From UHGV virus genome UHGV-0115960: a stretch of DNA of 38,642 nt. The stretch is one strand, 5' to 3'. The notes under the pieces were generated by a model. It was given only the letters and a program-made list of their open reading frames with translations. It did not search any database and was not told the origin of the DNA. This stretch comes from a virus. The position numbers were made by a program, and so were the translations under genes. Position 1 is the stretch's first letter. Every line of letters begins with the position of its first letter. Shown here one piece after another: positions 1,413-32,466 of the stretch.

Positions 1413-2522
1413 ATGAGCGCTAGAAGGTATAGAGCAAATCTCGATTCCCAAAGTGGATCTTTTATTAGAGGCTGGTGTTGCAGTACAGATGCTACAGCTG
1501 CCAGCGTCACAGTTTTAATCAACGATGTTGCTGTAGCAATACTTCCCGCATATCAAGAGCGCCTTGATTTAAAAAAGCACAACATATGCTCTAAGGGGGG
1601 CGGTTTCGAAGCTGACATTTCCAGCTTTATAACACATGGTGAAAATACAATCAAAATTGTAGACCCTGACGGAATGATAATACCTAACGGCCAATTCACC
1701 ATCACAAGCAGGAAATGGATACAAGGAGAATCTGAGCATTTGTTTGATTCTTCACGCAAAAAAATTGGTATATACGGCAATAGAGATATTGCAACCAATA
1801 TGAAATATGGATTTGTTCTTCCACAATTAATACATTGTCTTAATCTTTCTATTTCTGATGGAATGGATGGAGATGAAGATTGCAATATTTGGTTTGATAT
1901 TCCATCAGGAAAAAAACCTGAGAACGTTAAAGGACTAATAAACAAAAACCTGAACGATATTCAAAAATCATCCATTGACCTACATCACAGAAAGGTATTT
2001 GGAAGAGGGGTTTGCGTAGATAAGAGTGAGATTATACCTGATCGGCTATATGTTTTAAAATCAGACGAAAATGCAGCACATGATGGTAAGGTTATTAAAG
2101 GAGAAGAAGCTCTATCTGGAGAATTTAAAGGTAGTGTAATACAAAACCTTATTGATAATAGGCTTAATGAGAATGAAGTGCTTGATATTCGCGTTCCTGT
2201 AATAGGAGGAAGCATTCCTTTTGCATACCTAAAAGTTCGTCCTATCTCTATTCGGTTCTCTAACCAGAACTCTCGCTGCAGCATAGTAATGGTTGATACT
2301 GTTTTCTCTAAAAAAGAGGTATCGCAAATAATTGAGTTTGCAAGACTTAATAACATTGACTATGCAGAGCTTGATATTTTAAGGGATGCAAATTCAAAGG
2401 ATATATGGATAGTTGATGTGAACAACACTCCAGCTGGACCGCCGAATGGTTTGCACAAAATAGAGAAGAACTTGGCTATCAGAGAGATGTCGTTGCTTTT
2501 CTATAAAAAATTTATAGCTTAA
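1413..2522 (+). CDS. Accessory (moron) protein, 369 aa, C-terminal ATP-grasp-like motif; at the int-tailspike lysogenic-conversion position
   Basis: AT-rich gene with AT-rich upstream region 1208-1412; ATG with AAGGAA upstream; motif AELDILRDANSKDIWIVDVNNTPAG resembles the ATP-grasp C-terminal signature (RimK-like); no similarity to gtr or oac recognised. Confidence 0.55.
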   Translation: MSARRYRANLDSQSGSFIRGWCCSTDATAASVTVLINDVAVAILPAYQERLDLKKHNICSKGGGFEADISSFITHGENTIKIVDPDGMIIPNGQFTITSRKWIQGESEHLFDSSRKKIGIYGNRDIATNMKYGFVLPQLIHCLNLSISDGMDGDEDCNIWFDIPSGKKPENVKGLINKNLNDIQKSSIDLHHRKVFGRGVCVDKSEIIPDRLYVLKSDENAAHDGKVIKGEEALSGEFKGSVIQNLIDNRLNENEVLDIRVPVIGGSIPFAYLKVRPISIRFSNQNSRCSIVMVDTVFSKKEVSQIIEFARLNNIDYAELDILRDANSKDIWIVDVNNTPAGPPNGLHKIEKNLAIREMSLLFYKKFIA

Positions 2523-2617: not shown

Positions 2618-4891
2618 TCATTTTTCTAACTCTGAAATACGAGACTCCAATTCTTCTAATCTTAACAACAAACGATCAAAATTCCTTCGCTGAAGTTTAG
2701 CTTCCAGTGCAAAAGCCTCCTCATAACGTATTCCATACTTAGAACCTGATTTTCTTTGTGGGATAATAACTTCATCGTAAGCCTGATAGCCAGGTATAAG
2801 TTCTCCATTTTCACTAATTCTGTCAGGTGCGGCATCGTGATGCTGGATGACCTCTTCCTGATCACCCCATTCGTCATGGCATGCAAATCCGAACTTAAAT
2901 GCATCAATTCCATGACGTTCAAATGCCTCAATAGCTCTCTGGGCCACAACACCAAAGTGCCATCTAGCTTTTTCACCTTTTTCTTCAACACTTTCCAAAA
3001 ATTTATACTGACACCAATTTACTTCAGACCAAGCATCAAGCATGGCATCTGAGATATCTATAGGTTTTGTTTTGTATGTTTCATCCGATGTAACTATGAA
3101 AGCGGTTTGGGTAAATCCGCCAGACCACGCAGATGCTGAATCTCCACACAAATATTTGTTTGTGGCTGACGGTTTTATAGTCTTAGTAACTGTTTCTTTG
3201 CAGGTAATCTCAGCAACGGCATCATTAGCAACACCATCCTCCCCACCAATAAAGCGAATTACTCCGCTTGGAATATTTGTGTTTAAACCGGTATGAGCGC
3301 GTATCTGACGTACACCGGAAGAGCCAAGCCTTGCTAGTTTTATATCACTAGTAAGGAAAGTGTTTGTATCTGAATCCATAACCCAATATCTGGTATTGGT
3401 GCCACTATCAATAATGTCATTATTTAACTGCACCCCGATTCTCTGATTACCATATACTTGATTGTTAATAGCGCCATTTGAAATTACCACTCCTCGCGTC
3501 ATTCTGTTAATTACGGGGTTTGCAATTGTATTGTTAGAAGCAGAACGAGTTCCAGTTGCATTTTGTCTTAATCTAGTGTGCGTAGCATCTTTTGTGAACC
3601 CTGTTAAAAGCACTTCATTAGAAGACAAAACATTATAATCAGAGCAAATATCAAACCCAATATATGGAGTACCAGAATCACCATCACGGTTAAAAACAAT
3701 GCAGAAGTTATTGGCAATCTTGCAATGATTGCTACCTAATCCAGCGCCCTCACCAAGCTCAACAGCAGAAATAGATGTATTTATATGGTTCCCAAGGATG
3801 AAAATCATATTCCCACCTGTATCGTGAGAGACGATACCTCGTTGACCTGCGATGATGTGGTTAAATGCTACCGTAACCCCCTCTGAACTGCTAGTTACAT
3901 CCATAAATTGAATAAAATCACTAGCGCAACCGTTCGTGAAATTGATATCCCTAGACTGGTTTGTCACCCTGATACAGCAGTTTGTTGGCATGTCATCAAG
4001 TCCGCTCATTGAGCAGTGATCCATAAATACCTGGCTTGCTTTATCTAGGTGGACGCAACAGTCCCATCCGAACATGCCAGTTTCATCATTCGCAAACAGG
4101 ACATCAGTTAGTTTTAATTGTTCGCCGTATTTTGCTGTATGTGTTCCGGTGAACATCAATGCTGTAGCATCTCGATCTCCTCTCGTTCGAAATGATGTGT
4201 TAATAATGCGCATTGCCTTCCTGGTTCCAGAGATAGATGAATTATCTACAATCATTCCAAACCCTGAATCAAATATTATTCCAGTATTACCTTGTGAAAG
4301 ACCAAATATGTCGGAAGTAAACGCAGTAAGCACTATATTTTGGGAGCATTTATATAGCCGGGATAACTTTACGCTTACACCCATTGTTTTTGCTGTCTCG
4401 AAGGCGTCAATAAGTGCTTGGGTATCTGATGATGATATTATATTAGTGGCACCATACATTTCTGGTGATACGTATGGCATTTCATTGTATAAATTAGATT
4501 TCCCTATTCCTACTAATGATGCGCCATGGTTACCTGCTAGTTCACTTCGCAGTTGATCAGGGTCATACTTCAGTATATTTGGAAAATAGAACTGCTGCGT
4601 ACCATACGCATCATAAACAGCCATAGAATGGCCTTGCACGGTTACGAATTTGGCAATCTGTCCGTTATATACCGGATATCCAGCAGCATTAATGATGATT
4701 GGTTGCGAAACAGGAACGTGAGAGCCGTCTTCGTTCTCTATATAAACCTGAATCTGGTTTTCAGGATTTACCGGGTCCGTGTCAATTTTACCGATATAAA
4801 TTTTGCCATTAGCTACAGCTTTAAAAGAACGCGCCATAGTGAAGAGTTGCGAAGGCATCGATACGATCACATTGGCTGTAATGTCTGTCAT
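2618..4891 (-). CDS. Tailspike protein: P22 gp9-like N-terminal head-binding domain, divergent central receptor-binding domain, C-terminal peptidase S74-like intramolecular chaperone
   Basis: N-terminus [13 protein letters not shown]...[38 protein letters not shown] closely matches recalled P22 tailspike; C-terminus [20 protein letters not shown]...RWHFGVVAQ resembles the autoproteolytic chaperone motif of endosialidase-type fibers; terminal coiled coil. Confidence 0.9.
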
Positions 4892-5055
4892 TTAATTTTC
4901 TCCAGACGTAGCAATGCGGAACAAGATGCAACTTGCCCGGCATTGCATTAATGTAAGTTATGATTTGTTAACTATGAGATGAGTCTATGCAAAAAGATCT
5001 GTTGAATATTGCGTTCTATATATTTGGTTTTTGCACATTTCTGGTGTTTGCAAAG

Positions 5056-7449
5056 CTATTCTGACAACGAATCAGACTTCGCACCCTGCGTCAGGGCGTT
5101 AATTGCCTTTTGTGCCTGCTGCATGGTTTTCTCAAACTCTGTTGATCCGCGTGTGGTGTTTGCCATTCGGAGCATTGCATTTCTGAATGGCTCGCTCTCA
5201 TAGGCGCGAGTAAGAAGTCCGTAGCTTACTGCTGCGCCAGTTGTCGCCGGGTTCATTGCCGTCCCATACCCAATAATGAACGGGATAGTTTGCTGCCCTG
5301 TGGGTGTTGTTACTGCCGCTTTTGCAGCCTGCTGCGTGGATTGTAGGTAGTTTTTTAATCCTTTCAGATAAGCAGCGTCATGCCCCTTAAATGTAATGCC
5401 AGTCTGGTTTTGCAGGATGTTAAGCTGCCGAAGGAACTGGTCAGGGGATCCGCCAGATTTCTCCATCGCCTTTCCAATGATGCCATTGCGCATCTGCGCC
5501 CTGCCAACACGCCCCACTGAATTATACAGCGCCTTAATTTCCGATTTGTTCTTGCTGAATAGCATGTTGTTGACAACTTCCGGAGTCAGGTCGCCTTTCA
5601 TGAGAACATTCTTCAACCTGGTATTCTTTAGTTTCGCTGCTTCGTCAGCGTAGACGGCATTGGCCTGCTGATATTTACGAAGAGTATCATTGCCAAGATT
5701 CTGACCAATGGCACCATTGATATCGTCGGTCATCGCCTTGTAAACGCGCTGTATGGCAGCATCGGAACGGTTTGGTAACACTGGTCGCTCACCCTTCACA
5801 TCCATTCTGAACTGGCTGCGCAGATCGCTTAATTGCTTCAAATCCAGATTTACCGGACCATCAGGACCAGCATTGCGAACAAGCTCATCACGATAGGACT
5901 GAAGTTTTGAAATAGTCTCGTTATCAGCAACCTTACCAAGCTTCTGCAGGTTAGATATTTCTGTATCAATCTGCTGAATTGCTCTTGCAGGCTGAATGTT
6001 TATTCCCGCCATAGCATTCTGAACCTGCTCCAGTCGATTACCGGCGGCACGACGAATTCCTGATGTTTTCGCTTTAAGGCTGTCAATAACAACCGCTGGA
6101 TCATACTCACCGAATTTATCAGCAAATCTCTGAACCAACTGGCTTCTCGCTTCCTGTTGCGTTGCTCTCATTCCGCTTGTGCCAGCCAGGGGGATATTTT
6201 CTGCTGTCGTTTGCGCCATTTTTCCGACGCGGGAAGTAGGCTGTAACAGGTCTGTGGTGTGCAGAGGAACTCCTTCACGCTCTGCAAATCTGATAGCCTG
6301 CTGCGCTTCTGGCGCAATAGCACCACGAACGCCACGATAAGCAGCACCTAATCCACGTCCGGCAGCGTTAATAGCACCGCCAGCCAGCACACCAACGCCT
6401 AAATCGGTGGCGAGTGCTTCCGCATCATCTTTCGCACTATTTGCAGCAAGTGATCCAACTGCGTTTTCTGCTAGAAGGCGAGTTGCCCCCTGAGCAATTC
6501 GACCAGCAAGTGTTGGTGCCTGTGCTGCCGCTCTCTCAACGCCAGCAGGAGTGAGGTAAGGCAATGCTTCAGCAAATACCCTTCCCTCTGTCGTTTGTGG
6601 AGTCAGCGCGCCTTGCTGAAGGCCAAAGTCCTGCTCTAATCCCTGCGTTGTTACTCGTGGCGCTGGTTGATATGTACCATCGCCAATGCCGAGTTTACCG
6701 CCAGCCCAAGCCGCCGCGCTTGTTACAGCATCAGTGAGTTCAGCAGGTATGTTCGCTACGTTGATTCCTGCCTGTAGTAAGCCGCGCCCGGTTTCAGCAA
6801 GTCCATTACCAAGGTCAGACATTATTCCGCCTTGCTGCTGAACAGGTTTCGGTGCGACAGAACTTACGGGTTGAGGTGGCTGCTGACTGGCTGCCTGCTG
6901 CTCAATCTGAGCAAATGGATTATTTGGGTCTGACTGCACGCCTGATGTCGATACTTGTTCGGATGACTGTGCTTCCAGTTGTGCAAACGGGTTGTTAGGG
7001 TCTTGCTGAGGATGTACCTTTGCAGAGGTGGCGCGCTGTTCGACTGTTGAGTCTGTCACCGGGTCACCCGCCCATTGAGCAAAGCGATCATCAACGTAAC
7101 CGCGGCCTTCAGGTCCTGGCGTATATTCACCACGCTTTGCCTTCATAACGTTGCCGGGACCGTCGTGATAAGCCTGAAGAGCGTCACGCCAGTTACCAAA
7201 CTGCTGGTACATCTTTGCCAGATAGCGCGCGCCAGCGTCAGCCTGATATTCGGGGTTTTGCATTTGCTCATCGGTATAACCCATATCACGCCATGTCCCA
7301 GGCATGACCTGAGTCAATCCTACAGCCCCGGCGGAGCTTACTGCGGCAGGGTTGTAAGAAGACTCCTTGGCACCCAGTGCAGTCATCAACCCTTCTGGCA
7401 CACCGTAACGTGCGCCAGCCTGCTCTAACAAATCACGGTAATTAGCCAT
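5056..7449 (-). CDS. Ejection/DNA-transfer protein (P22 gp16 position) with N-terminal soluble lytic transglycosylase domain
   Basis: SLT motifs ESSYNPAAVSSAGAVGLTQVMPGTW and AYHDGPGN; position after gp20-like; internal tandem peptide repeat DPNNPFAQ(L/I)E. Confidence 0.8.
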   Translation of the reverse strand: MANYRDLLEQAGARYGVPEGLMTALGAKESSYNPAAVSSAGAVGLTQVMPGTWRDMGYTDEQMQNPEYQADAGARYLAKMYQQFGNWRDALQAYHDGPGNVMKAKRGEYTPGPEGRGYVDDRFAQWAGDPVTDSTVEQRATSAKVHPQQDPNNPFAQLEAQSSEQVSTSGVQSDPNNPFAQIEQQAASQQPPQPVSSVAPKPVQQQGGIMSDLGNGLAETGRGLLQAGINVANIPAELTDAVTSAAAWAGGKLGIGDGTYQPAPRVTTQGLEQDFGLQQGALTPQTTEGRVFAEALPYLTPAGVERAAAQAPTLAGRIAQGATRLLAENAVGSLAANSAKDDAEALATDLGVGVLAGGAINAAGRGLGAAYRGVRGAIAPEAQQAIRFAEREGVPLHTTDLLQPTSRVGKMAQTTAENIPLAGTSGMRATQQEARSQLVQRFADKFGEYDPAVVIDSLKAKTSGIRRAAGNRLEQVQNAMAGINIQPARAIQQIDTEISNLQKLGKVADNETISKLQSYRDELVRNAGPDGPVNLDLKQLSDLRSQFRMDVKGERPVLPNRSDAAIQRVYKAMTDDINGAIGQNLGNDTLRKYQQANAVYADEAAKLKNTRLKNVLMKGDLTPEVVNNMLFSKNKSEIKALYNSVGRVGRAQMRNGIIGKAMEKSGGSPDQFLRQLNILQNQTGITFKGHDAAYLKGLKNYLQSTQQAAKAAVTTPTGQQTIPFIIGYGTAMNPATTGAAVSYGLLTRAYESEPFRNAMLRMANTTRGSTEFEKTMQQAQKAINALTQGAKSDSLSE

Positions 7450-8787
7450 TTACTGCCCCAAAGATGGAAGATATCCGTAGCGATTAATGAAGTCGATTGA
7501 CAGCTCGGGGTGCTGCTTCAGGTAATCTATAGAAGCCTGAGGCGCTTCCACTCGCTTGATACCGTTTTGCTGAACGTACTTACCAACCGCCTCATTACGC
7601 TTCTGGTTGAGCGTGTTCAGGATGACGCCAGCGTTGCGACGAAAGGACTCCTCGCTCTGCGAGTTCTGCAGCGAACCAACAGCCTGGTCGAGCTTTTTGC
7701 CCTCGGCATCAGAAAGTGCGCCCATGCCTCGCATGGCCTGAACCGCTGTCAGGTATGCTTGTGATTTAAAGGTATCAAGTCGTGCCTGAGTGTCTGCAGC
7801 CTGTGAGCCTGGAACGTTGGGGATTACTCCGCGTAAGCCTGTAATGCTCTTAAGTGAAGGAGAACTAACGATATCGTTCAGAGTGAACATGCTGGTTGTG
7901 AGGGTGTTGATGCCGTCTTTGTAGCCATCATTTAGCGCTTGCTGCTTCTGCTGCAACTGCTGGTTGTTGGCTGCTATGCGGCTCTGTATTTCCTGGCGCT
8001 TCAGGTCGTTAGTTTCTGCTGATAGCATCCGGTCAAGGCGCTTATTTTCGTTGTTAATGCGGTTTGTTTCTGCGTCCAGATTAATGCGCTGCTGACCTAA
8101 ATTCGCCTGGATATCCTGTCCGCGCATTGTGATTGCCTGATTCCGAGCGGCGGTTTGCGAATCCAGATCCTGACCGCGCATGGTAACCTGGCGACCCTGC
8201 ATTTTATCCTGTAGGTCAAAGTATTTTTCGGGCCCGAGACTGTTCATCCCCAGGTGATCGACAAATTCGCCGAACTGCCGCGGGTTATGTTGGTACATCT
8301 GAGCGACGTCATGAGGATTAACGCCAACACGAGCTAACTCACCTGCGTTGTTTTGCAGCCATGATTGCATTGCTTCTGGAGACGAGGCCGCAAGGCGTGC
8401 GCCAGCCGCCAAGGTGCCGATAGAATTGCGCTGGTCTTCGTCTGCCCACTTCATACCAGACTGAATCTTCTCTAATTGACCAGGATATTTGGTCATCAGA
8501 TCTCGAACCTGCTGTCGATCACCTGACTGGATGGCTGCCGCATATTCTTTTTGGAATGCAGCATCCGCTTCCTGTTGCTTTGCGGCTTGATATGTTTGAG
8601 CGACACTACCAAGCCCCTGCAACGCCTGAAGGCCGATGTTATTGCGACCTGAGCGCTCCATTTCGTTGTTCTGGCGAATATAGGCCAACGCCTCACTTAC
8701 ATCACTTGCCTTTGGCGCATTTGAGTTTTGCCCACCGATACCAGCAAGAAAGCCGCCTGAGTTGATTCCTTGTTGCCAAGTAGCCAT
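7450..8787 (-). CDS. Ejection protein, P22 gp20-like
   Basis: Size and position in conserved P22 order gp7-gp20-gp16; Q/N-rich low-complexity sequence typical of ejection proteins. Confidence 0.7.
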   Translation of the reverse strand: MATWQQGINSGGFLAGIGGQNSNAPKASDVSEALAYIRQNNEMERSGRNNIGLQALQGLGSVAQTYQAAKQQEADAAFQKEYAAAIQSGDRQQVRDLMTKYPGQLEKIQSGMKWADEDQRNSIGTLAAGARLAASSPEAMQSWLQNNAGELARVGVNPHDVAQMYQHNPRQFGEFVDHLGMNSLGPEKYFDLQDKMQGRQVTMRGQDLDSQTAARNQAITMRGQDIQANLGQQRINLDAETNRINNENKRLDRMLSAETNDLKRQEIQSRIAANNQQLQQKQQALNDGYKDGINTLTTSMFTLNDIVSSPSLKSITGLRGVIPNVPGSQAADTQARLDTFKSQAYLTAVQAMRGMGALSDAEGKKLDQAVGSLQNSQSEESFRRNAGVILNTLNQKRNEAVGKYVQQNGIKRVEAPQASIDYLKQHPELSIDFINRYGYLPSLGQ

Positions 8788-19413: not shown

Positions 19414-19519
19414 AATGTTTCGTAATTGCGTCAGATCATTAACCATAGTTATTGTGTAGCTGCTTTGTGTCGTTGGGGTGAACGACGAAAAAGCGAACAA
19501 CATAATTAATGAGGTGACT

Positions 19520-20050
19520 ATGGAAGTCGAAAAAATGCTGGTCAAGGACCGGAAGTGTGGCTCTTGCTCAGTTTGCTGTGTTTCTTTGGCAATAGATGAG
19601 CCCGAATTGAAAAAAAAGCATGCGGTACCGTGTACCTATCTCAGGCCTCAGGGTGGTTGCTCGATCTATGCTGATCGACCGTCATTGTGCAAAACATGGC
19701 ACTGCGGATGGCGGATGATGCCTTTCATGGGGCCTGCGTTAAGACCAGATCGGTCCAATCTCCTAGTGCGCTTCACGGGAGAATGTTGGATTTTCGGTGA
19801 TGCTGACGACCAAAGGGAATCTGCATTAATGAATAATGATACTTTAAACGCAATGAGCGCTCTGGTCTCGCGTAATATGAAAGTTTCAGTATCAGTTCCA
19901 ACTAAGCCGGGTTATTGCGACGCTGAACATGTCATCAATGATGATATTATGGAGGCGGTAAAAGAACGGTCTTTGTCAAAAGTTAAAGAAATAATTTGGA
20001 CAGTAATTTGCCGGTGCAAAGTCTCCGCGACCAACCCGCGAAAGCAATAA
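19520..20050 (+). CDS. YkgJ-family cysteine-cluster protein (putative metal-binding), antisense to late operon
   Basis: Motif CGSCSVCC plus further Cys (C...C...C..HC) typical of the CxxCxxCC family; ATG at 19520 with GAGGTG upstream (track start 19478 is further upstream). Confidence 0.55.
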   Translation: MEVEKMLVKDRKCGSCSVCCVSLAIDEPELKKKHAVPCTYLRPQGGCSIYADRPSLCKTWHCGWRMMPFMGPALRPDRSNLLVRFTGECWIFGDADDQRESALMNNDTLNAMSALVSRNMKVSVSVPTKPGYCDAEHVINDDIMEAVKERSLSKVKEIIWTVICRCKVSATNPRKQ

Positions 20051-24456: not shown

Positions 24457-24619
24457 GATTCCTCCTTGCTGCCAGTCGCAACCATTTTTTATCAACCAGG
24501 CTGGCGGTATATCCGAGCAGAGTTGGTATTTCGGATGGCTTCAGCTCAGGTTTACGCTTACGACGATTTGGTACTTTGTAGATGTGTCCGTTCATGACAC
24601 GAATAAGCGGTGTAGCCAT
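24449..24619 (-). CDS. Small nin-region protein (NinE-like, 56 aa)
   Basis: ATG overlaps NinB stop (TAATG); basic KRKPELKPSEIPTL segment; assignment from memory only. Confidence 0.4.
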   Translation of the reverse strand: MATPLIRVMNGHIYKVPNRRKRKPELKPSEIPTLLGYTASLVDKKWLRLAARRNHG

Positions 24620-25074
24620 TACGCCTCCTGCTTGTCGCGCAGCAGCTGGAACTCGCAGCTCTGTGGAATAGTCAGGTGGCAACCAATATTCATCGCCCAG
24701 GCTTCAACCTTACACAGGAAGACATACATCTCTCCGGTATCAAGATCGGAGGTATGGCGTAACGACTGGATAGTGGTGATATCACCGGTTACGACATCAA
24801 CCAGGTCTTTGGTTTCATAACCGAGATATGTGTGTTTGAGAGCATCTTTTACCCAAGCTGGAGTGGCGAACGTTTTACCCCTGCTGATGAGGTATTCACT
24901 GATTTCGCTGTACCACATGTGGCTGAGTGCATTCTGGGAAAGACTGCGTCTCTCGCGCCACGGTTTAAGCACCATGCGAAAGCATTTGCCGTCCTCCAGA
25001 TAAGGCTGGATCTGCCGACCGATAGCGGTGAAGTTACCGCGATGCAATTTGATACCATCTTGTGGGAGGTTCAC
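24619..25074 (-). CDS. ninB: NinB/Orf-family recombination protein
   Basis: Motif [16 protein letters not shown] resembles NinB RSLDQN signature; GTG start with GGAGGTG upstream; first gene of nin block. Confidence 0.7.
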
Positions 25075-25349
25075 GCTTCACCTCCGCAGAGATCAAACGT
25101 TGGATGCAAGATATCGCAGGTGCATTTCTGCATCTGTGACTGGTTGAAAGGCGTTCTGATTGTCGTTTGCACTTTGAGTCCCCTCAAAGCGCAGAAGTCA
25201 CCGGAGTTGTTCAGGCTCCGATGACATGATTATGGCGAGTTGATTATGATGAATCAATAGGTTCTTATGTCAAATGAACACTAGATCCAAAGGAGGGTAA
25301 CAATTATCATAGCCAATGAGATTAATCTCATTTTTAATAAGGAAATTTC

Positions 25350-26768
25350 ATGAAATATTTCTCAACTGGTTTTTATGTTTCAAACTCCACATCTCTAGCT
25401 GAGATCTTTAATGAATGTTTTTCTTGGGTAAACGACTCACCACATACAACTTTTATTCCAGCACAATTAGTATGTGATTATAAAAGCGAGGAGTACTTCA
25501 TAGAGTCTAAAAATGAAAGAATTGATATAATAACTTATAAAAACAAAGATACTAGTTTAGGCTGTTTTAGGTATTCGAAAATATCTGAGCCACACAAATG
25601 GATAACAGATATTTCAATTAATAAAAATCTCAAAACTGATACCATGTGGATTCAGGTGGAATCTAGCGTTGTAAGCCAAGATGCAGCTTATCTAGCCCCG
25701 CAACCTAAGAAACCATTAGTTGTTATGAGATTGATTGATAAATTTCCTGGTGGTCTTGATGATATTTTCAAGGTGTCAGTCGAACCTCATTCCTTAGATG
25801 ATACTGATGAACATTTAAATATAGCAGCTAAAGTTATAAATGGTGAAACTGACAACAGACTACCAATAATATACGTTAGCTCCAAGTATTTTTTTAATGA
25901 ACATGCTCACAATATCATCCCAGAACGCCTTGCAAGAAAGGTATGCGGATTAGCACATGTATTAATTGAGCCTAGCAATAGACTATTTTCTATTAAGCTA
26001 AAAAATGAGACAAATGCTAAAAATGCCTATGCTGGTGCTGTTGGTATCTATTGGCCACGGGGTCAAAATATCAGTTTTTATCGCCGTGGTGAGAAAACCG
26101 CAAAAGAATTTGAAGATGAGTTATTTGATGATGTTGTAAGAGCTACGACTACAATGGCTCCTGTCTCAGATAGTGGATGGAGTGAGATACAAACCAGAAA
26201 AACGAAAGACTCTATTAACTCACTCAAAGAAAGAGGAGAATACACACGCGAACTGATGGCGCTTTACGAAGCCGATAATGTTGCGAAAGATGACCAAATA
26301 GAAGATCTTAAGCATAAGATCTCCTCTTTAGAGCACAGAGTACGCACTCTTCAATCACAAGCTTCAGCCCAAGGAAGCATTGCGCTTAATGCTGGTGAAG
26401 AGACTGACTTTTTTGATGGAGAAATCAAAAATATAATTATTGACGCACTAAAAACTGCCATAAAAAATAAAAATGAATTTGGTAGAAGCTACCATATCTT
26501 ATCATCCCTAATTGCCAATAATGAATACAATAAAGAAACCGAGAGTCGCCGCCAATTACTTAAAAGGACTTTAACAGGTTACAGAAGCATGGATAGCGCA
26601 ACACAAAGAAATTTAAAGGACTTAGGTTTCAGTGCGTCAAGCGATGGAAAACACTGGAAGTTAACATATAATGAAGACCCTCGATATTCCTATATTTTAC
26701 CTAAAACAGGAAGTGACCACAGAGGTTCTTTAAATGCTATCTCGGATATAGCAAACATTATTTTCTAA
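25350..26768 (+). CDS. Uncharacterised 472-aa protein, AT-rich moron antisense to the early-right operon
   Basis: Long ORF with strongly AT-biased codons, own upstream AT-rich region and downstream hairpin; central coiled-coil segment; no recognised family. Confidence 0.8.
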   Translation: MKYFSTGFYVSNSTSLAEIFNECFSWVNDSPHTTFIPAQLVCDYKSEEYFIESKNERIDIITYKNKDTSLGCFRYSKISEPHKWITDISINKNLKTDTMWIQVESSVVSQDAAYLAPQPKKPLVVMRLIDKFPGGLDDIFKVSVEPHSLDDTDEHLNIAAKVINGETDNRLPIIYVSSKYFFNEHAHNIIPERLARKVCGLAHVLIEPSNRLFSIKLKNETNAKNAYAGAVGIYWPRGQNISFYRRGEKTAKEFEDELFDDVVRATTTMAPVSDSGWSEIQTRKTKDSINSLKERGEYTRELMALYEADNVAKDDQIEDLKHKISSLEHRVRTLQSQASAQGSIALNAGEETDFFDGEIKNIIIDALKTAIKNKNEFGRSYHILSSLIANNEYNKETESRRQLLKRTLTGYRSMDSATQRNLKDLGFSASSDGKHWKLTYNEDPRYSYILPKTGSDHRGSLNAISDIANIIF

Positions 26769-26777
26769 TAAATTTCA

Positions 26778-26803
26778 ATAGCACTCACAAATGAGTGCTA
26801 TTG
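26778..26803. terminator. Hairpin terminator after the 472-aa gene
   Basis: Inverted repeat ATAGCACTCA caaa TGAGTGCTAT. Confidence 0.6.
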
Positions 26804-26819
26804 TTGCCACTGAATTACT

Positions 26820-26981
26820 CTATTTAAATTCAACTTTTATCCCTTTGTTTAGCAGGGCATCAGAAACTGCCTTTTTTGTAACATTTATCCCTGCAAGCAA
26901 TGCTTTATGCATTGGTCCCTTAAAAATCTCTACTTCTTCTTCAGTGAGTTTAGGCAATGTAATATAAATAACATCTTTCAT
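26820..26981 (-). CDS. Small hypothetical protein (53 aa from ATG; track ORF extends to a GTG at 27074)
   Basis: ORF only; weak SD; AT-rich; convergent with 472-aa gene. Confidence 0.3.
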   Translation of the reverse strand: MKDVIYITLPKLTEEEVEIFKGPMHKALLAGINVTKKAVSDALLNKGIKVEFK

Positions 26982-27138
26982 CTGCTTGTTTTTATAGCAT
27001 GAGCTTCTTGTGTGCTTACAATCGATATTTTCTTTATTTCCCAAAACATCATCCCCTTTATAATTCAGTTCCACACATCAATTATTTAGTTATCACGAAT
27101 GTCGTAAAACTAAAATTAGTAACAATAATTGCTCATAC

Positions 27139-27426
27139 CTACTCTCTTCCATATAAAGCCAACACCCGCTTCATCGCGGCACTTTGACGACACTCCTTAA
27201 AAATCAGATTCGTGCTCACCTTTCCTTCCCGTTCTTCTCTGGTAGCGAACCGGTAATACACCGTTCGCCAGACCTTACCATCAACGACCAGGATTCCTGC
27301 CCGCGCCATTTTAGCCGCAGCCTGATTTATGCTGGTTACGGTTGCGCCTGTTACCGCGGCAACGTCCTGCGCACAGAAGTTCTTATGAGTCCCCAGGTAA
27401 TGAATAATTGCCTCTTTGCCCGTCAT
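27139..27426 (-). CDS. ren: Ren protein
   Basis: MTGKEAIIHYLGTH...AAVTGATVTSINQAAAKMARAG matches recalled lambda Ren; ATGA overlap with P stop. Confidence 0.85.
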   Translation of the reverse strand: MTGKEAIIHYLGTHKNFCAQDVAAVTGATVTSINQAAAKMARAGILVVDGKVWRTVYYRFATREEREGKVSTNLIFKECRQSAAMKRVLALYGRE

Positions 27427-29976: not shown

Positions 29977-30080
29977 AACAACCTCCGTGGTTAATTTGAA
30001 TCAAGATTAAAACTATGGTTGTTTTTAGTCAACAACCATTTTCGTTTGATGGAATAAAACCTTGGTTGTACATTTGGACT
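29977..30080. promoter_or_regulatory. cI/cro divergent promoter-operator region (oR/pR/pRM equivalent)
   Basis: Perfect palindrome ATGGTTGTT-n7-AACAACCAT at about 30015-30039 plus additional AACAACC/GGTTGT half-sites. Confidence 0.65.
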
Positions 30081-30770
30081 ATGAAAACAACACTCTCAGA
30101 AAGACTTAAAGAAGCCAGATTAGCGCGAGGCCTTACACAAAAGGCGCTTGGGGATTTGGTCGGGGTTAGCCAAGCTGCTATTCAGAAAATCGAAACAGGG
30201 AAAGCTAACCAAACAACTAAAATCGTGGAGATCGCGAACGCTTTGGGTGTGCGCGCAGAATGGTTATCTTCTGGCGTTGGAAATATGTCAGACAGTACAG
30301 TGCAACCAATACAATCCACTGTCAGCCATTCCAAATACTTCAAGATTGACGTTCTTGATATAGAAGTGAGTGCCGGGCCGGGAGTCATCAACCGTGAGTT
30401 TGTAGAAGTCCTACGCTCGGTTGAGTACTCGTTTGACGATGCTCGTCACATGTTCGATGGCAGGAAGGCAGAAAATATCCGCATCATTAACGTACGCGGT
30501 GACAGCATGTCAGGAACGATCGAACCAGGTGATCTTTTGTTCGTTGATATCACTGTTAAATCTTTCGACGGTGATGGTATCTATGCGTTTCTGTACGACG
30601 ACACAGCCCATGTAAAGCGCCTGCAAATGATGAAGGATAAGCTGCTGGTTATCTCTGATAACAAGAGCTACTCACCGTGGGACCCGATCGAGAAAGACGA
30701 GATGAACCGGGTGTTTATCTTCGGTAAGGTTATTGGGAGCATGCCGCAGACATATAGGAAGCATGGTTAA
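30081..30770 (+). CDS. cI: CI-type prophage repressor (HTH plus LexA/S24-like autocleavage domain)
   Basis: HTH LTQKALGDLVGVSQAAIQKIE; C-terminal GDSMSGTIEPGDLLFVD...VKRL S24 peptidase motifs; track ORF start at 30015 lies inside operator, ATG 30081 preferred. Confidence 0.9.
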   Translation: MKTTLSERLKEARLARGLTQKALGDLVGVSQAAIQKIETGKANQTTKIVEIANALGVRAEWLSSGVGNMSDSTVQPIQSTVSHSKYFKIDVLDIEVSAGPGVINREFVEVLRSVEYSFDDARHMFDGRKAENIRIINVRGDSMSGTIEPGDLLFVDITVKSFDGDGIYAFLYDDTAHVKRLQMMKDKLLVISDNKSYSPWDPIEKDEMNRVFIFGKVIGSMPQTYRKHG

Positions 30771-30889: not shown

Positions 30890-31642
30890 GTGATGGAGTG
30901 CGTAGCGAGCAGCAATAGTGCAATACCTAATGTCGTTGAGGTAATACGTCGCATCAATGAAGGTTCCACTCAGCCATTTCTTTGCAAATGTGATGATGGG
31001 CAGTTGTATGTTTTGAAGTCAAAACCATCAATGCCCCCGAAAAATCTCTTAGCTGAGTTCATTTCGGCGTGTTTGGCTAATGATATCGGCCTTCCTTTAC
31101 CTGACTTTAAAATCGTATTTGTGCCAGAGGAACTTATAGAGTACTCACCTGATCTGCAGCAACAAATTTGTACAGGATATGCCTTTGCTTCATTGTTCAT
31201 TGACGGTGCAATAGCGTTAACGTTTACGCAGTCAAGAAACGAAACGATCATCCCAGTCGAACAGCAAAAATTAATCTATGTTTTTGATAAATGGATATTA
31301 AATGCAGACAGAACGCTTACTGACAAAGGTGGAAACGTTAACATCCTTTATGACATCAGTAACGATAAGTATTATCTGATTGACCATAATCTCTCATTTG
31401 ATCAGAATGCTGGACCTGAAGATTTTTCTGTGCACGTGTACGGCCCTGGTAACCGCAAATGGCAATATGATTTAGTGGATCGCGTAGAGTACCGCCAGAG
31501 GGTCGTTAACAGTTTACACAAGCTTCCTGCTATCCTTGACGAAATTCCAGAAGAGTGGATAGTAGATGAGGAGTTTTTACCTTTTGTCTGCACTACGCTA
31601 GACAAAGGTGATTGTGATGAATTTTGGAGCGCAATAGAATGA
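30890..31642 (+). CDS. Protein-kinase-like fold protein (HipA/aminoglycoside-phosphotransferase-like catalytic motifs), 250 aa, downstream of cI
   Basis: Candidate catalytic loop TDKGGNVNIL and downstream LIDHNLSFD about 20 residues later; candidate ATP-binding Lys in LYVLKSK; lower GC than backbone. Confidence 0.55.
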   Translation: MMECVASSNSAIPNVVEVIRRINEGSTQPFLCKCDDGQLYVLKSKPSMPPKNLLAEFISACLANDIGLPLPDFKIVFVPEELIEYSPDLQQQICTGYAFASLFIDGAIALTFTQSRNETIIPVEQQKLIYVFDKWILNADRTLTDKGGNVNILYDISNDKYYLIDHNLSFDQNAGPEDFSVHVYGPGNRKWQYDLVDRVEYRQRVVNSLHKLPAILDEIPEEWIVDEEFLPFVCTTLDKGDCDEFWSAIE

Positions 31643-32466
31643 CAACTCCATGCCTATATAGCATCGTTCGCTATGCGCCTTATGCGGAGACTGAAGAGTT
31701 CGCAAACATAGGCGTACTTCTGTGCGCGCCAAAAGAAAATTACTTTGATTTCCAGCTCACAAAGCGAAATGACTCTCGTGTAAAGAATTTTTTCCATGAT
31801 GATTGTATTTTCCCTGTAGCAAAAGACTCAATACAAAGAGAACTACAGTTCGCAAAAATGCATGCGACCCAGATTGTTGGACATCAACAACTTGCACAAT
31901 TCTTCAGATATTTTACAAACAAAAAAGAATCAATTTTTCAGTTCAGTTCTACGAGAGTGATTCTCAGCGAAAACCCAAAAGAAGAGCTGGCCCGCATTTA
32001 CAATAAATATGTAAACCACTCTGACTACACAAAAGAGCGCCGTGAAGATGTTCTAGCCAGAGAGCTAAAACGAAGTATCGATAGAATAGATGGATTGAAG
32101 AACCTCTTCAAACAAGCAACCATTGATGGGTATTTCGCAAAGTTCTCAATGCCATTGGTCGCCAAGAAGCATGACAGGATCCAATGTGCCATCAAACCTC
32201 TGGCATTCACTCAAGCTGAACCAGGAAAAATGATGGAGCATAGTGATACTTGGGTGATGAGAATAACTCGAGCAGCAGAAGAAAACCTGCTTTCACTTGA
32301 TGACATTTTATTCACAATTGAAACTCCTGAATCACCAAACTCAGGCCAAAGCAAAGTTATTGACATCATAAAGAGAACTATGGATGCTAAGAAAATAAAT
32401 CATATACCTGCATCCAACCACAAAGAAACTATTGATTTTGCAAAAAAAATACTTCCCCAAGTTTAA
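31639..32466 (+). CDS. DUF3037-like protein (275 aa), translationally coupled to the kinase-like gene
   Basis: N-terminal YSIVRYAPYAETEEFANIGVLL resembles DUF3037 signature (from memory); ATGA start/stop overlap with upstream gene. Confidence 0.6.
   Translation: MTTPCLYSIVRYAPYAETEEFANIGVLLCAPKENYFDFQLTKRNDSRVKNFFHDDCIFPVAKDSIQRELQFAKMHATQIVGHQQLAQFFRYFTNKKESIFQFSSTRVILSENPKEELARIYNKYVNHSDYTKERREDVLARELKRSIDRIDGLKNLFKQATIDGYFAKFSMPLVAKKHDRIQCAIKPLAFTQAEPGKMMEHSDTWVMRITRAAEENLLSLDDILFTIETPESPNSGQSKVIDIIKRTMDAKKINHIPASNHKETIDFAKKILPQV

Follow-up and report, generated by a model that had tools for sequence, protein, structure and literature searches.

The closest described system to the gene considered here is HEC-07 (Hma-embedded candidate 07), a single-protein system that is represented in PADLOC by the models PDLC04158-04161 and that was among the seven of nine candidates found to reduce plaquing in E. 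coli (Payne et al. 2024, bioRxiv 10.1101/2024.01.29.577857). The HEC-07 protein ends in a RelE-family RNase domain, with a conserved histidine, H543, near the C-terminus (bioRxiv 10.1101/2024.01.29.577857). Our subject is a plus-strand open reading frame (ORF) encoding 472 amino acids (aa) at positions 25350-26768 of the virus genome UHGV-0115960 from UHGV, a lambdoid prophage sequence of 38,642 nucleotides that we call the window. The ORF interrupts the minus-strand early-right operon between ren and ninB. We found that the N-terminal two-thirds of its product is homologous to HEC-07, and that its C-terminus is a different, HicA-like module. The reading we favour, at a probability of roughly 55%, is that the gene is autonomous mobile cargo (a moron) for a single-chain anti-phage or conflict protein related to HEC-07.

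To describe the protein, we used an AlphaFold model built on a 41-sequence alignment, with a mean pLDDT score of 83.7. The gene and the segments of its product are as follows.

25350-26768, plus strand: the 472-aa gene, a HEC-07-related single-protein candidate defence factor, from the ORF list
25350-25754, plus strand: N-terminal domain, residues 1 to about 135, of topology beta-alpha-alpha-beta5-alpha, helix-grip (START/Bet v 1)-like or AdoMetDC-like
25755-26174, plus strand: thioredoxin-like domain, residues about 136-275, without CxxC
26178-26354, plus strand: helical/coiled-coil segment, residues 277-335, with AlphaFold helices at 277-294 and 300-335
26421-26573, plus strand: three-helix region before the putative effector, residues 358-408, from AlphaFold models
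26574-26765, plus strand: HicA-like C-terminal module, residues about 409-472, of topology alpha-beta-beta-beta-alpha

The N-terminal domain, the presumed sensor, has the AdoMetDC-like (PDB 3C6K-like) character that marks HEC-07, and the second domain has the thioredoxin-like fold without CxxC that is likewise a mark of HEC-07; both folds, together with structure 3c6k, were reported for HEC-07 by Payne et al. 2024 (bioRxiv 10.1101/2024.01.29.577857). Within the thioredoxin-like domain, LP172, the motif G200-x-A-H203-V-x-x-E207 and P236 are invariant. A central coiled coil had been noticed in an earlier, sequence-only reading of the locus, and its presence was confirmed both by AlphaFold (helix 300-335) and by Pfam, in which coiled-coil families at residues 281-347 are the only matches to the protein; this segment probably serves oligomerisation. 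In the three-helix stretch that follows, residues E351, E358, R379 and N391 are invariant in the family alignment. We attempted a direct family assignment and abandoned it, as Pfam and NCBIfam gave coiled-coil noise only and a profile search of PDB sequences gave coiled coils only. The earlier statement that, apart from the coiled coil, the protein has no assignable motifs is nonetheless contradicted by the three recognisable fold modules and the HicA-like C-terminus.

The sequence-only reading had named a hidden Markov model (HMM) and structure-based homology search as its check, and that search yielded a remote homolog of HEC-07. By hhalign, the family profile aligned to the tested HEC-07 protein WP_033943166.1 with 95.8% probability (E 7.8e-9) over 292 columns, in a comparison that covered the first 399 of 549 residues (Table S2 sequence). 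The alignment takes in the G-x-A-H-V motif common to both and the beginning of the HEC-07 coiled coil, 'ELLGLYEQDN', to which the coiled-coil segment aligns. Of the four PADLOC models for HEC-07, only PDLC04161 was matched (E 1.1e-9), with residues 83-340 covering profile positions 107-372 of 553. A full-length HEC-07 from a Rhodanobacter plasmid, which matches all four models end to end (E 1.9e-97 to 6e-33), aligned to the family across the N-terminal and thioredoxin-like domains (hhalign, E 4.5e-5). The N-terminal two-thirds of the 472-aa protein, comprising the helix-grip/AdoMetDC-like domain, the thioredoxin-like domain without CxxC and the coiled coil, is homologous to HEC-07.

The homology does not extend to the C-terminus: hhalign found no similarity between the C-terminal 130 residues of the family and the HEC-07 C-terminus (probability 1.3%). 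A stretch in the Rhodanobacter HEC-07 C-terminus (about 5280-5400 of the locus), 'TYQGRRYTLDQHVSGSSSRDRRRG', resembles 'TYNEDPRYSYILPKTGSDHRG' of the family; given the hhalign probability, this likeness could be due to chance or to a shared substructure. PADLOC assigns HEC-07 membership on a full-length profile match, and the 472-aa protein has none; neither does it have a RelE-family C-terminus, its alpha-beta-beta-beta-alpha topology finding its best matches in HicA. Because it fails on both counts, the protein is not a member of HEC-07. By profile comparison, it is a remote HEC-07 homolog with a different predicted effector, within a large unannotated family. With the N-terminal module alone as query, the best 120 matches were all of the 465-aa architecture, and no effector fusion other than HEC-07 was found.

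A separate AlphaFold model of residues 343-472 (pLDDT 84.9) comprises three helices followed by the alpha-beta-beta-beta-alpha unit, which has the double-stranded RNA-binding domain (dsRBD)-like fold of HicA. Among the C-termini of the family, HicA_toxin is the sole recurrent Pfam family (7 of 25 at E<=10, best E 0.0048), with family scores below the gathering threshold; the window protein itself has no Pfam HicA_toxin (PF07927) match. The C-terminus of the 472-aa protein is matched by phrog_2053 at E 8.9e-8, a profile also matched by genuine E. coli HicA (E 0.01), for which we used a sequence that scores 30.9 bits in Pfam against a cut-off of 27. In the hhalign comparison of the C-terminus with HicA (E 5.5e-5), residue H435 pairs with the histidine of 'GSNH' in E. 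coli HicA, which we take to be catalytic in that toxin. By Foldseek, HicA 5yrz_B ranked top among 350,542 chains (probability 0.69, TM 0.57, E 0.43). Five independent signals, each weak but in agreement, suggest a HicA-like C-terminus. Across 31 sequences, down to 23% identity, the elements G-K-H435-x-K437, D443-x-R445-Y446 and K452-T453-x-S455 are invariant, and they form the densest set of invariant polar residues in the protein, whose best-conserved part is this module. D443, R445, Y446, K452, T453 and S455 are not known to belong to the HicA signature. The C-terminal module is presumed to be an RNase effector.

A different division of labour within a defence or conflict protein has to be weighed against this presumption, namely that the dsRBD-like C-terminal module is an RNA-binding sensor and that catalysis resides in the thioredoxin-like domain (H203, E207) or in a recruited host factor. 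The HicA fold is itself dsRBD-like, and the evidence for HicA consists of a fold and one histidine, not of activity; furthermore, G-x-A-H-V-x-x-E and P236 are invariant, with the G-x-A-H-V part common to HEC-07. However, HEC-07 has a RelE-type RNase at the same position, an effector swap between two RNase folds is the simpler explanation, and the concentration of invariant polar residues in the C-terminal module is typical of an active site. We consider the sensor assignment unlikely.

The gene is accompanied by the following candidate signals.

25221-25250, plus strand: candidate sigma-70 promoter, ATGACA-18-TATGAT, from a consensus scan and promoter-like only
about 25310-25315, plus strand: second candidate -10 element, TATCAT, inside the block conserved with the Edwardsiella cassette, from alignment
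26776-26803, no strand assigned: perfect 12-bp-stem hairpin between convergent genes, terminator-like on both strands

An AAGGA Shine-Dalgarno sequence lies upstream of the ATG. The downstream hairpin, which had been picked out in the sequence-only reading, has a folding energy of -17 kcal/mol and a z of -5.6, and its perfect stem was found as described. In the Edwardsiella cassette the stem is kept through two compensatory pair substitutions, and the copy in an integrase/DUF927 element has an unrelated hairpin at the same position; a stable hairpin stands directly after the stop codon in each copy compared (z = -5.6, -8.8 and -3.8). Compared with its 81%-identical Edwardsiella homolog, the gene has a ratio of nonsynonymous to synonymous substitution rates (dN/dS) of 0.128. 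The lambdoid cassettes of E. coli and Edwardsiella have common flanks of about 78% identity, while the flanks of the integrase/DUF927-element copy are unrelated to these, the ORF being the only part shared across contexts. Judged by these comparisons, the gene is real, constrained and autonomous.

The surroundings of the gene in the window are as follows.

24619-25074, minus strand: ninB, left neighbour, from the ORF list
25075-25262, no strand: lambdoid junction upstream of ninB, the left edge of the cargo slot, from similarity to other phages
25263-27138, no strand: foreign AT-rich cargo block, from the ren stop codon to the ninB junction, from composition and alignment
27139-27426, minus strand: ren, right neighbour, from the ORF list

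That a low-GC block with a plus-strand ORF lies between ren and ninB, as first claimed, is borne out by composition. Local GC content is 0.32-0.41 over about 25200-27100, against about 0.50 in both flanks; for 25258-27138 it is 0.347, against 0.477 for the remainder of the window (z = -3.2 against non-overlapping windows), and this block has the lowest GC of all 1,881-bp sliding windows (minimum at 25251). At third codon positions, the GC content is 0.275 in the 472-aa ORF and 0.592 in ninB. The extent of the block had to be revised. The whole of 25075-27138 had been taken as inserted, which is right from about 25263 onwards; the left 183-190 bp (25075-25262) are not foreign but a conserved junction common to lambdoid phages, with 81-86% identity to many of them and a presence in more than 2,500 E. 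coli records. In an alignment with Lambda_4C10, HK639 and the Edwardsiella prophage, similarity stops after about 25262, and for this reason we place the start of the foreign block at about 25263, giving a size of about 1.9 kb. Within the junction are the palindrome GCAGGTGCATTTCTGCATCTGT and a single promoter-like site; the record of phage 82 marks orf33, a -10 signal and a possible site for regulator binding in the corresponding stretch. An Rfam scan of the block gave no match.

The E. coli NCTC9066 prophage has a copy of the block with 100% identity; at full length the block is present in 24 of 5,426 complete E. coli genomes, and both block and gene are absent from 50,697 phage records searched by megablast and tblastn. 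One cassette copy, in E. coli G4/9 (NZ_CP060073.1 3604405-3607700), has been broken in two by the insertion of an IS3-family transposase. The slot has other occupants elsewhere: in HK639 it is filled by four unrelated same-strand genes, and in phages of the Lambda_4C10 group an antisense alpha/beta-hydrolase gene directly follows the same conserved junction. On comparison of these genomes, the ren-ninB interval is a variable cargo (moron) slot of lambdoid phages, and the 472-aa gene, which runs antisense to the early-right operon, is cargo gained by horizontal transfer.

The family to which the protein belongs is large. A first-pass search returned 73 homologs, about 470 aa in length, from Enterobacterales, Pseudomonas and Caulobacter. 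An exhaustive profile search gave 3,472 cluster representatives (clusters at 50% identity) at E<=1e-3, the weakest of which may include coiled-coil noise, and 1,036 at E<=1e-30; nearly all representatives are about 465 aa long, and the best 150 are nearly all full-length. The family reaches into Firmicutes as well as Proteobacteria, with individual variants seen on hundreds of contigs from enterobacteria. Every database name within it is 'hypothetical protein'. Current defence annotation misses the family (PADLOC 2.0, Pfam and NCBIfam), and a literature search by accession numbers and keywords found no paper on it.

We sampled nine genomic neighbourhoods of the family, with the following contexts.

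Lambdoid prophages of E. coli and Edwardsiella: antisense, between replication genes and late-regulation genes
Integrase/DUF927 element: at the cargo end, at two different chromosomal sites
P2/HP1-like Pseudomonas prophage: at the edge, beside a HipA-like kinase
5.9-kb ColE1-type Klebsiella plasmids: as the main cargo
Caulobacter: beside uvrB and helix-turn-helix (HTH) genes
Loci with Hsp70-like, radical SAM, Schlafen-like ATPase and Fic genes
Loci with DUF2357, MYG1 exonuclease and NERD genes
Loci with vWA, PP2C, kinase and Upf1-like helicase genes

On the late-regulation side of the lambdoid slot lie ninB...Q in E. coli and pRha/DUF968/antiterminator in Edwardsiella. No neighbour gene is conserved across the nine contexts, which is the pattern of a stand-alone conflict gene, and no HicB antitoxin gene is adjacent.

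Several individual loci deserve description. The Klebsiella plasmid NZ_CP028803.2 carries a 48%-identical homolog at 3836-5257; it is a mobilizable 5.9-kb ColE1-type plasmid, and the rest of these plasmids holds only Rop, an HTH gene and a RelE/ParE-TraY pair. On a Pseudomonas metagenomic contig, a HipA_C kinase gene and a gene for 235 aa lie directly upstream of a homolog (4114-5839). A HipA-type kinase is thus found near a homolog both on this contig and in the window, where a HipA_2 pair lies 4 kb off, a recurrence that may be coincidence within cargo hotspots. In a Firmicutes-type clade, an ORF of 67-74 aa overlaps the start of the homolog by 4 bp at three loci (7801-8004; 5721-5924; 5084-5308), and could be a clade-specific partner.

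The occurrence of the gene on small ColE1 plasmids and integrative elements, together with its HicA-like C-terminus and the lack of a separate antitoxin, might also indicate a fused toxin-antitoxin-type addiction or stabilisation module, in which a HicA-like toxin restrained in cis would serve maintenance of the element over phage defence. Yet post-segregational killing needs a toxin and an antitoxin of unequal stability, which one polypeptide does not provide, and the Klebsiella ColE1 plasmid already has a RelE/ParE pair. The closest characterised relative, HEC-07, acts against phages, and many family members are chromosomal, in defence-like islands. We regard element maintenance as a doubtful explanation, and a rather unlikely one.

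Facing the 472-aa gene across the hairpin is a small ORF.

26820-27074, minus strand: small convergent ORF, 84 aa as listed, from the ORF list
26820-26981, minus strand: its conserved 53-aa core, which starts MKDVIYI..., from comparison with the Edwardsiella cassette

The sequence-only reading had listed this convergent ORF beside the large gene. The ORF is present, but its conservation is limited to the C-terminal 53 codons, from an internal Met, and it is not a general partner. The core shares 68% identity with a 65-aa ORF of the Edwardsiella cassette, both beginning at an internal Met, and is the sole frame open in both cassettes, with a dN/dS of 0.36. Only near-identical homologs were found among 5.8 billion proteins, and there was no match in Pfam, PADLOC, PHROG or PDB. 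The small ORF is absent beside the homologs in the integrase/DUF927 element, Pseudomonas, Caulobacter and the metagenomic loci scanned. These comparisons make it likely that the phage lytic strand carries a genuine gene of 53 aa here, restricted to the lambdoid cassette, and it may act in self-immunity. A type II toxin-antitoxin system has a co-oriented, co-transcribed and conserved partner, whereas the small ORF is convergent, separated by the hairpin and confined to lambdoid cassettes; we rejected it as a general antitoxin partner on account of its absence elsewhere. In RefSeq, the 84-aa ORF is named 'phospholipase D-like domain-containing protein' in E. coli MB20 (5745-5999) and 'hypothetical protein' in other genomes. 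A remnant of a phospholipase-D gene was considered and rejected: there is no Pfam match at E<=1, no HKD motif, no PDB relative, and no homolog other than near-identical ones.

One could nonetheless suppose a two-gene unit in which the 53-aa core is a functional partner, for instance a lytic-strand factor that neutralises the 472-aa protein so that the prophage completes its own lytic cycle. Both lambdoid cassettes have kept the core together with the large gene; it is open only in the one constrained frame and lies on the early-right operon strand, and cognate self-immunity has been documented for the prophage-encoded defence protein BstA (PMC8585504). The core is, however, missing from the other loci scanned; no partner of similar size is annotated on the Klebsiella plasmid. 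The small ORF has no homologs beyond close copies and no assignable fold or family, and its constraint is moderate and comes from a single pairwise comparison. We therefore find a two-gene unit improbable. Lastly, the location inside the prophage early region might suggest a routine structural, replicative or lytic role in the phage, or a gene in decay. Either is scarcely credible for a gene that is antisense to the operon with its own hairpin, lies 13 GC points below its flanks, occurs on plasmids and chromosomal islands but in none of 50,697 phage records, evolves under strong purifying selection (dN/dS 0.128) and belongs to a large family of uniform length.

We thus prefer the reading of the 472-aa gene as autonomous cargo for a HEC-07-related single-chain protein. 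The locus had originally been proposed to hold an accessory exclusion or abortive-infection gene. The accessory and defensive part of that proposal fits the cargo slot, the remote HEC-07 homology, and the cargo and defence-island-like contexts; for the abortive part, we infer that the gene probably encodes a self-contained abortive-infection protein with an RNase effector, expressed in the lysogen. Transcription in the lysogen would be driven by the gene's own promoter. The N-terminal domains would act as sensor and cis-inhibitor, and the protein would be kept inactive as a coiled-coil oligomer until a signal from an infecting phage freed the HicA-like domain. The freed domain would then cut RNA independently of the ribosome, like HicA toxins, translation would stop, and the infection would be aborted ahead of progeny formation.

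Several observations weigh against this reading. The pairwise identity between the 472-aa protein and the tested HEC-07 is only about 25%, and for the activity of HEC-07 the sole source is a preprint. RNA can be bound by a dsRBD-like fold and yet not be cut. Which site serves as the promoter is ambiguous, and the link to cargo and defence-like loci is a descriptive association drawn from the nine neighbourhoods. In addition, the gene is not carried by any sequenced phage genome among the 50,697 records.

The presence of RelE in HEC-07 and of a HicA-like module here on a common scaffold points to effector swapping on a common sensor, and suggests that the HEC-07-type scaffold can exchange its effectors. 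We speculate, with a good deal less assurance than for the cargo reading, that the approximately 465-aa family and HEC-07 could be two branches of a widespread class of modular single-chain immune sensors, in which a conserved scaffold senses infection and drives interchangeable RelE- or HicA-like RNases; the helix-grip pocket may bind a small ligand, and the lambdoid 53-aa gene would give the prophage self-immunity.

If the preferred reading is correct, a large unnamed family (more than 1,000 clusters at 50% identity, in Proteobacteria and Firmicutes) gains a testable function, and the HEC-07 sensor scaffold is shown to be modular and able to bear a HicA-type effector. As far as we could find, a HicA-like domain would then be seen for the first time as the fused effector in a stand-alone defence protein. 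Mutagenesis can be aimed directly at the invariant H435, K437 and R445 and at the G-x-A-H203 motif, and further systems may be sought in the ren-ninB interval, where lambdoid prophages recurrently hold antisense cargo.

The window holds other candidates for cargo. On the plus strand at 30890-32466 are a HipA_2-like kinase (PF20613, E 1e-76) and a DUF3037 protein, directly downstream of a cI-like repressor gene (30015-30770) on the lysogen strand. The pair matches the candidate PADLOC pair PDC-M66A/B (E 6e-15 and 4e-16), and we consider it a second candidate defence cargo in the same prophage; in the NCTC9066 prophage, its slot is occupied by a Ser/Thr kinase and a PP2C phosphatase. A 369-aa ORF at 1413-2522 (plus strand), of low GC content (about 0.38) and with no Pfam match, is flanked by an integrase gene (14-1207) and a P22-type tailspike gene (2618-4891; Head_binding, Peptidase_S74). 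In P22, the O-antigen conversion genes lie between integrase and tailspike. Lastly, a 190-aa ORF at 19478-20050 (plus strand), antisense among minus-strand genes and with no Pfam or PADLOC match, may be another moron or may be spurious.

Compared with lambdoid moron slots already known, the ren-ninB interval behaves alike in carrying unrelated cargo in other phages (HK639 and the Lambda_4C10 group), and differs in that its present cargo gene is found in none of the sequenced phage records. A working analogy, and no more than that, is offered by CapRel(SJ46), a fused toxin-antitoxin defence protein reportedly described by Zhang et al. in Nature in 2022: a prophage-encoded single polypeptide whose toxin domain is said to be inhibited in cis by a sensor until a phage protein releases it, leading to abortive infection. 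CapRel(SJ46) is a RelA/SpoT-like tRNA pyrophosphokinase, whereas an RNase is presumed here; the two are unrelated in fold and chemistry, their domains come in the opposite order, and homology was neither detected nor expected.

HicA toxins (PF07927, for example PDB 5yrz) are free proteins of about 60 aa that score above the Pfam gathering threshold and, in HicAB type II systems, are paired with HicB. In the present family, by contrast, the C-termini score below that threshold, the module is fused to a 400-residue N-terminal region, and the 472-aa gene has no HicB gene next to it; HicA toxins are ribosome-independent RNases, whereas for the 472-aa protein RNase activity is predicted only. HEC-07 stands closest, sharing with the present protein its helix-grip/AdoMetDC-like domain, its thioredoxin-like domain that lacks CxxC and its coiled coil. 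It is longer (549-588 aa, against 472 aa) and has a RelE-like C-terminus, with H543 about six residues from the end of the 549-aa tested protein, where the present protein has a HicA-like module whose invariant histidine lies 37 residues from the C-terminus. Whereas HEC-07 is embedded in Hma systems, the gene described here resides in the cargo slots of prophages, satellite-like elements and plasmids.

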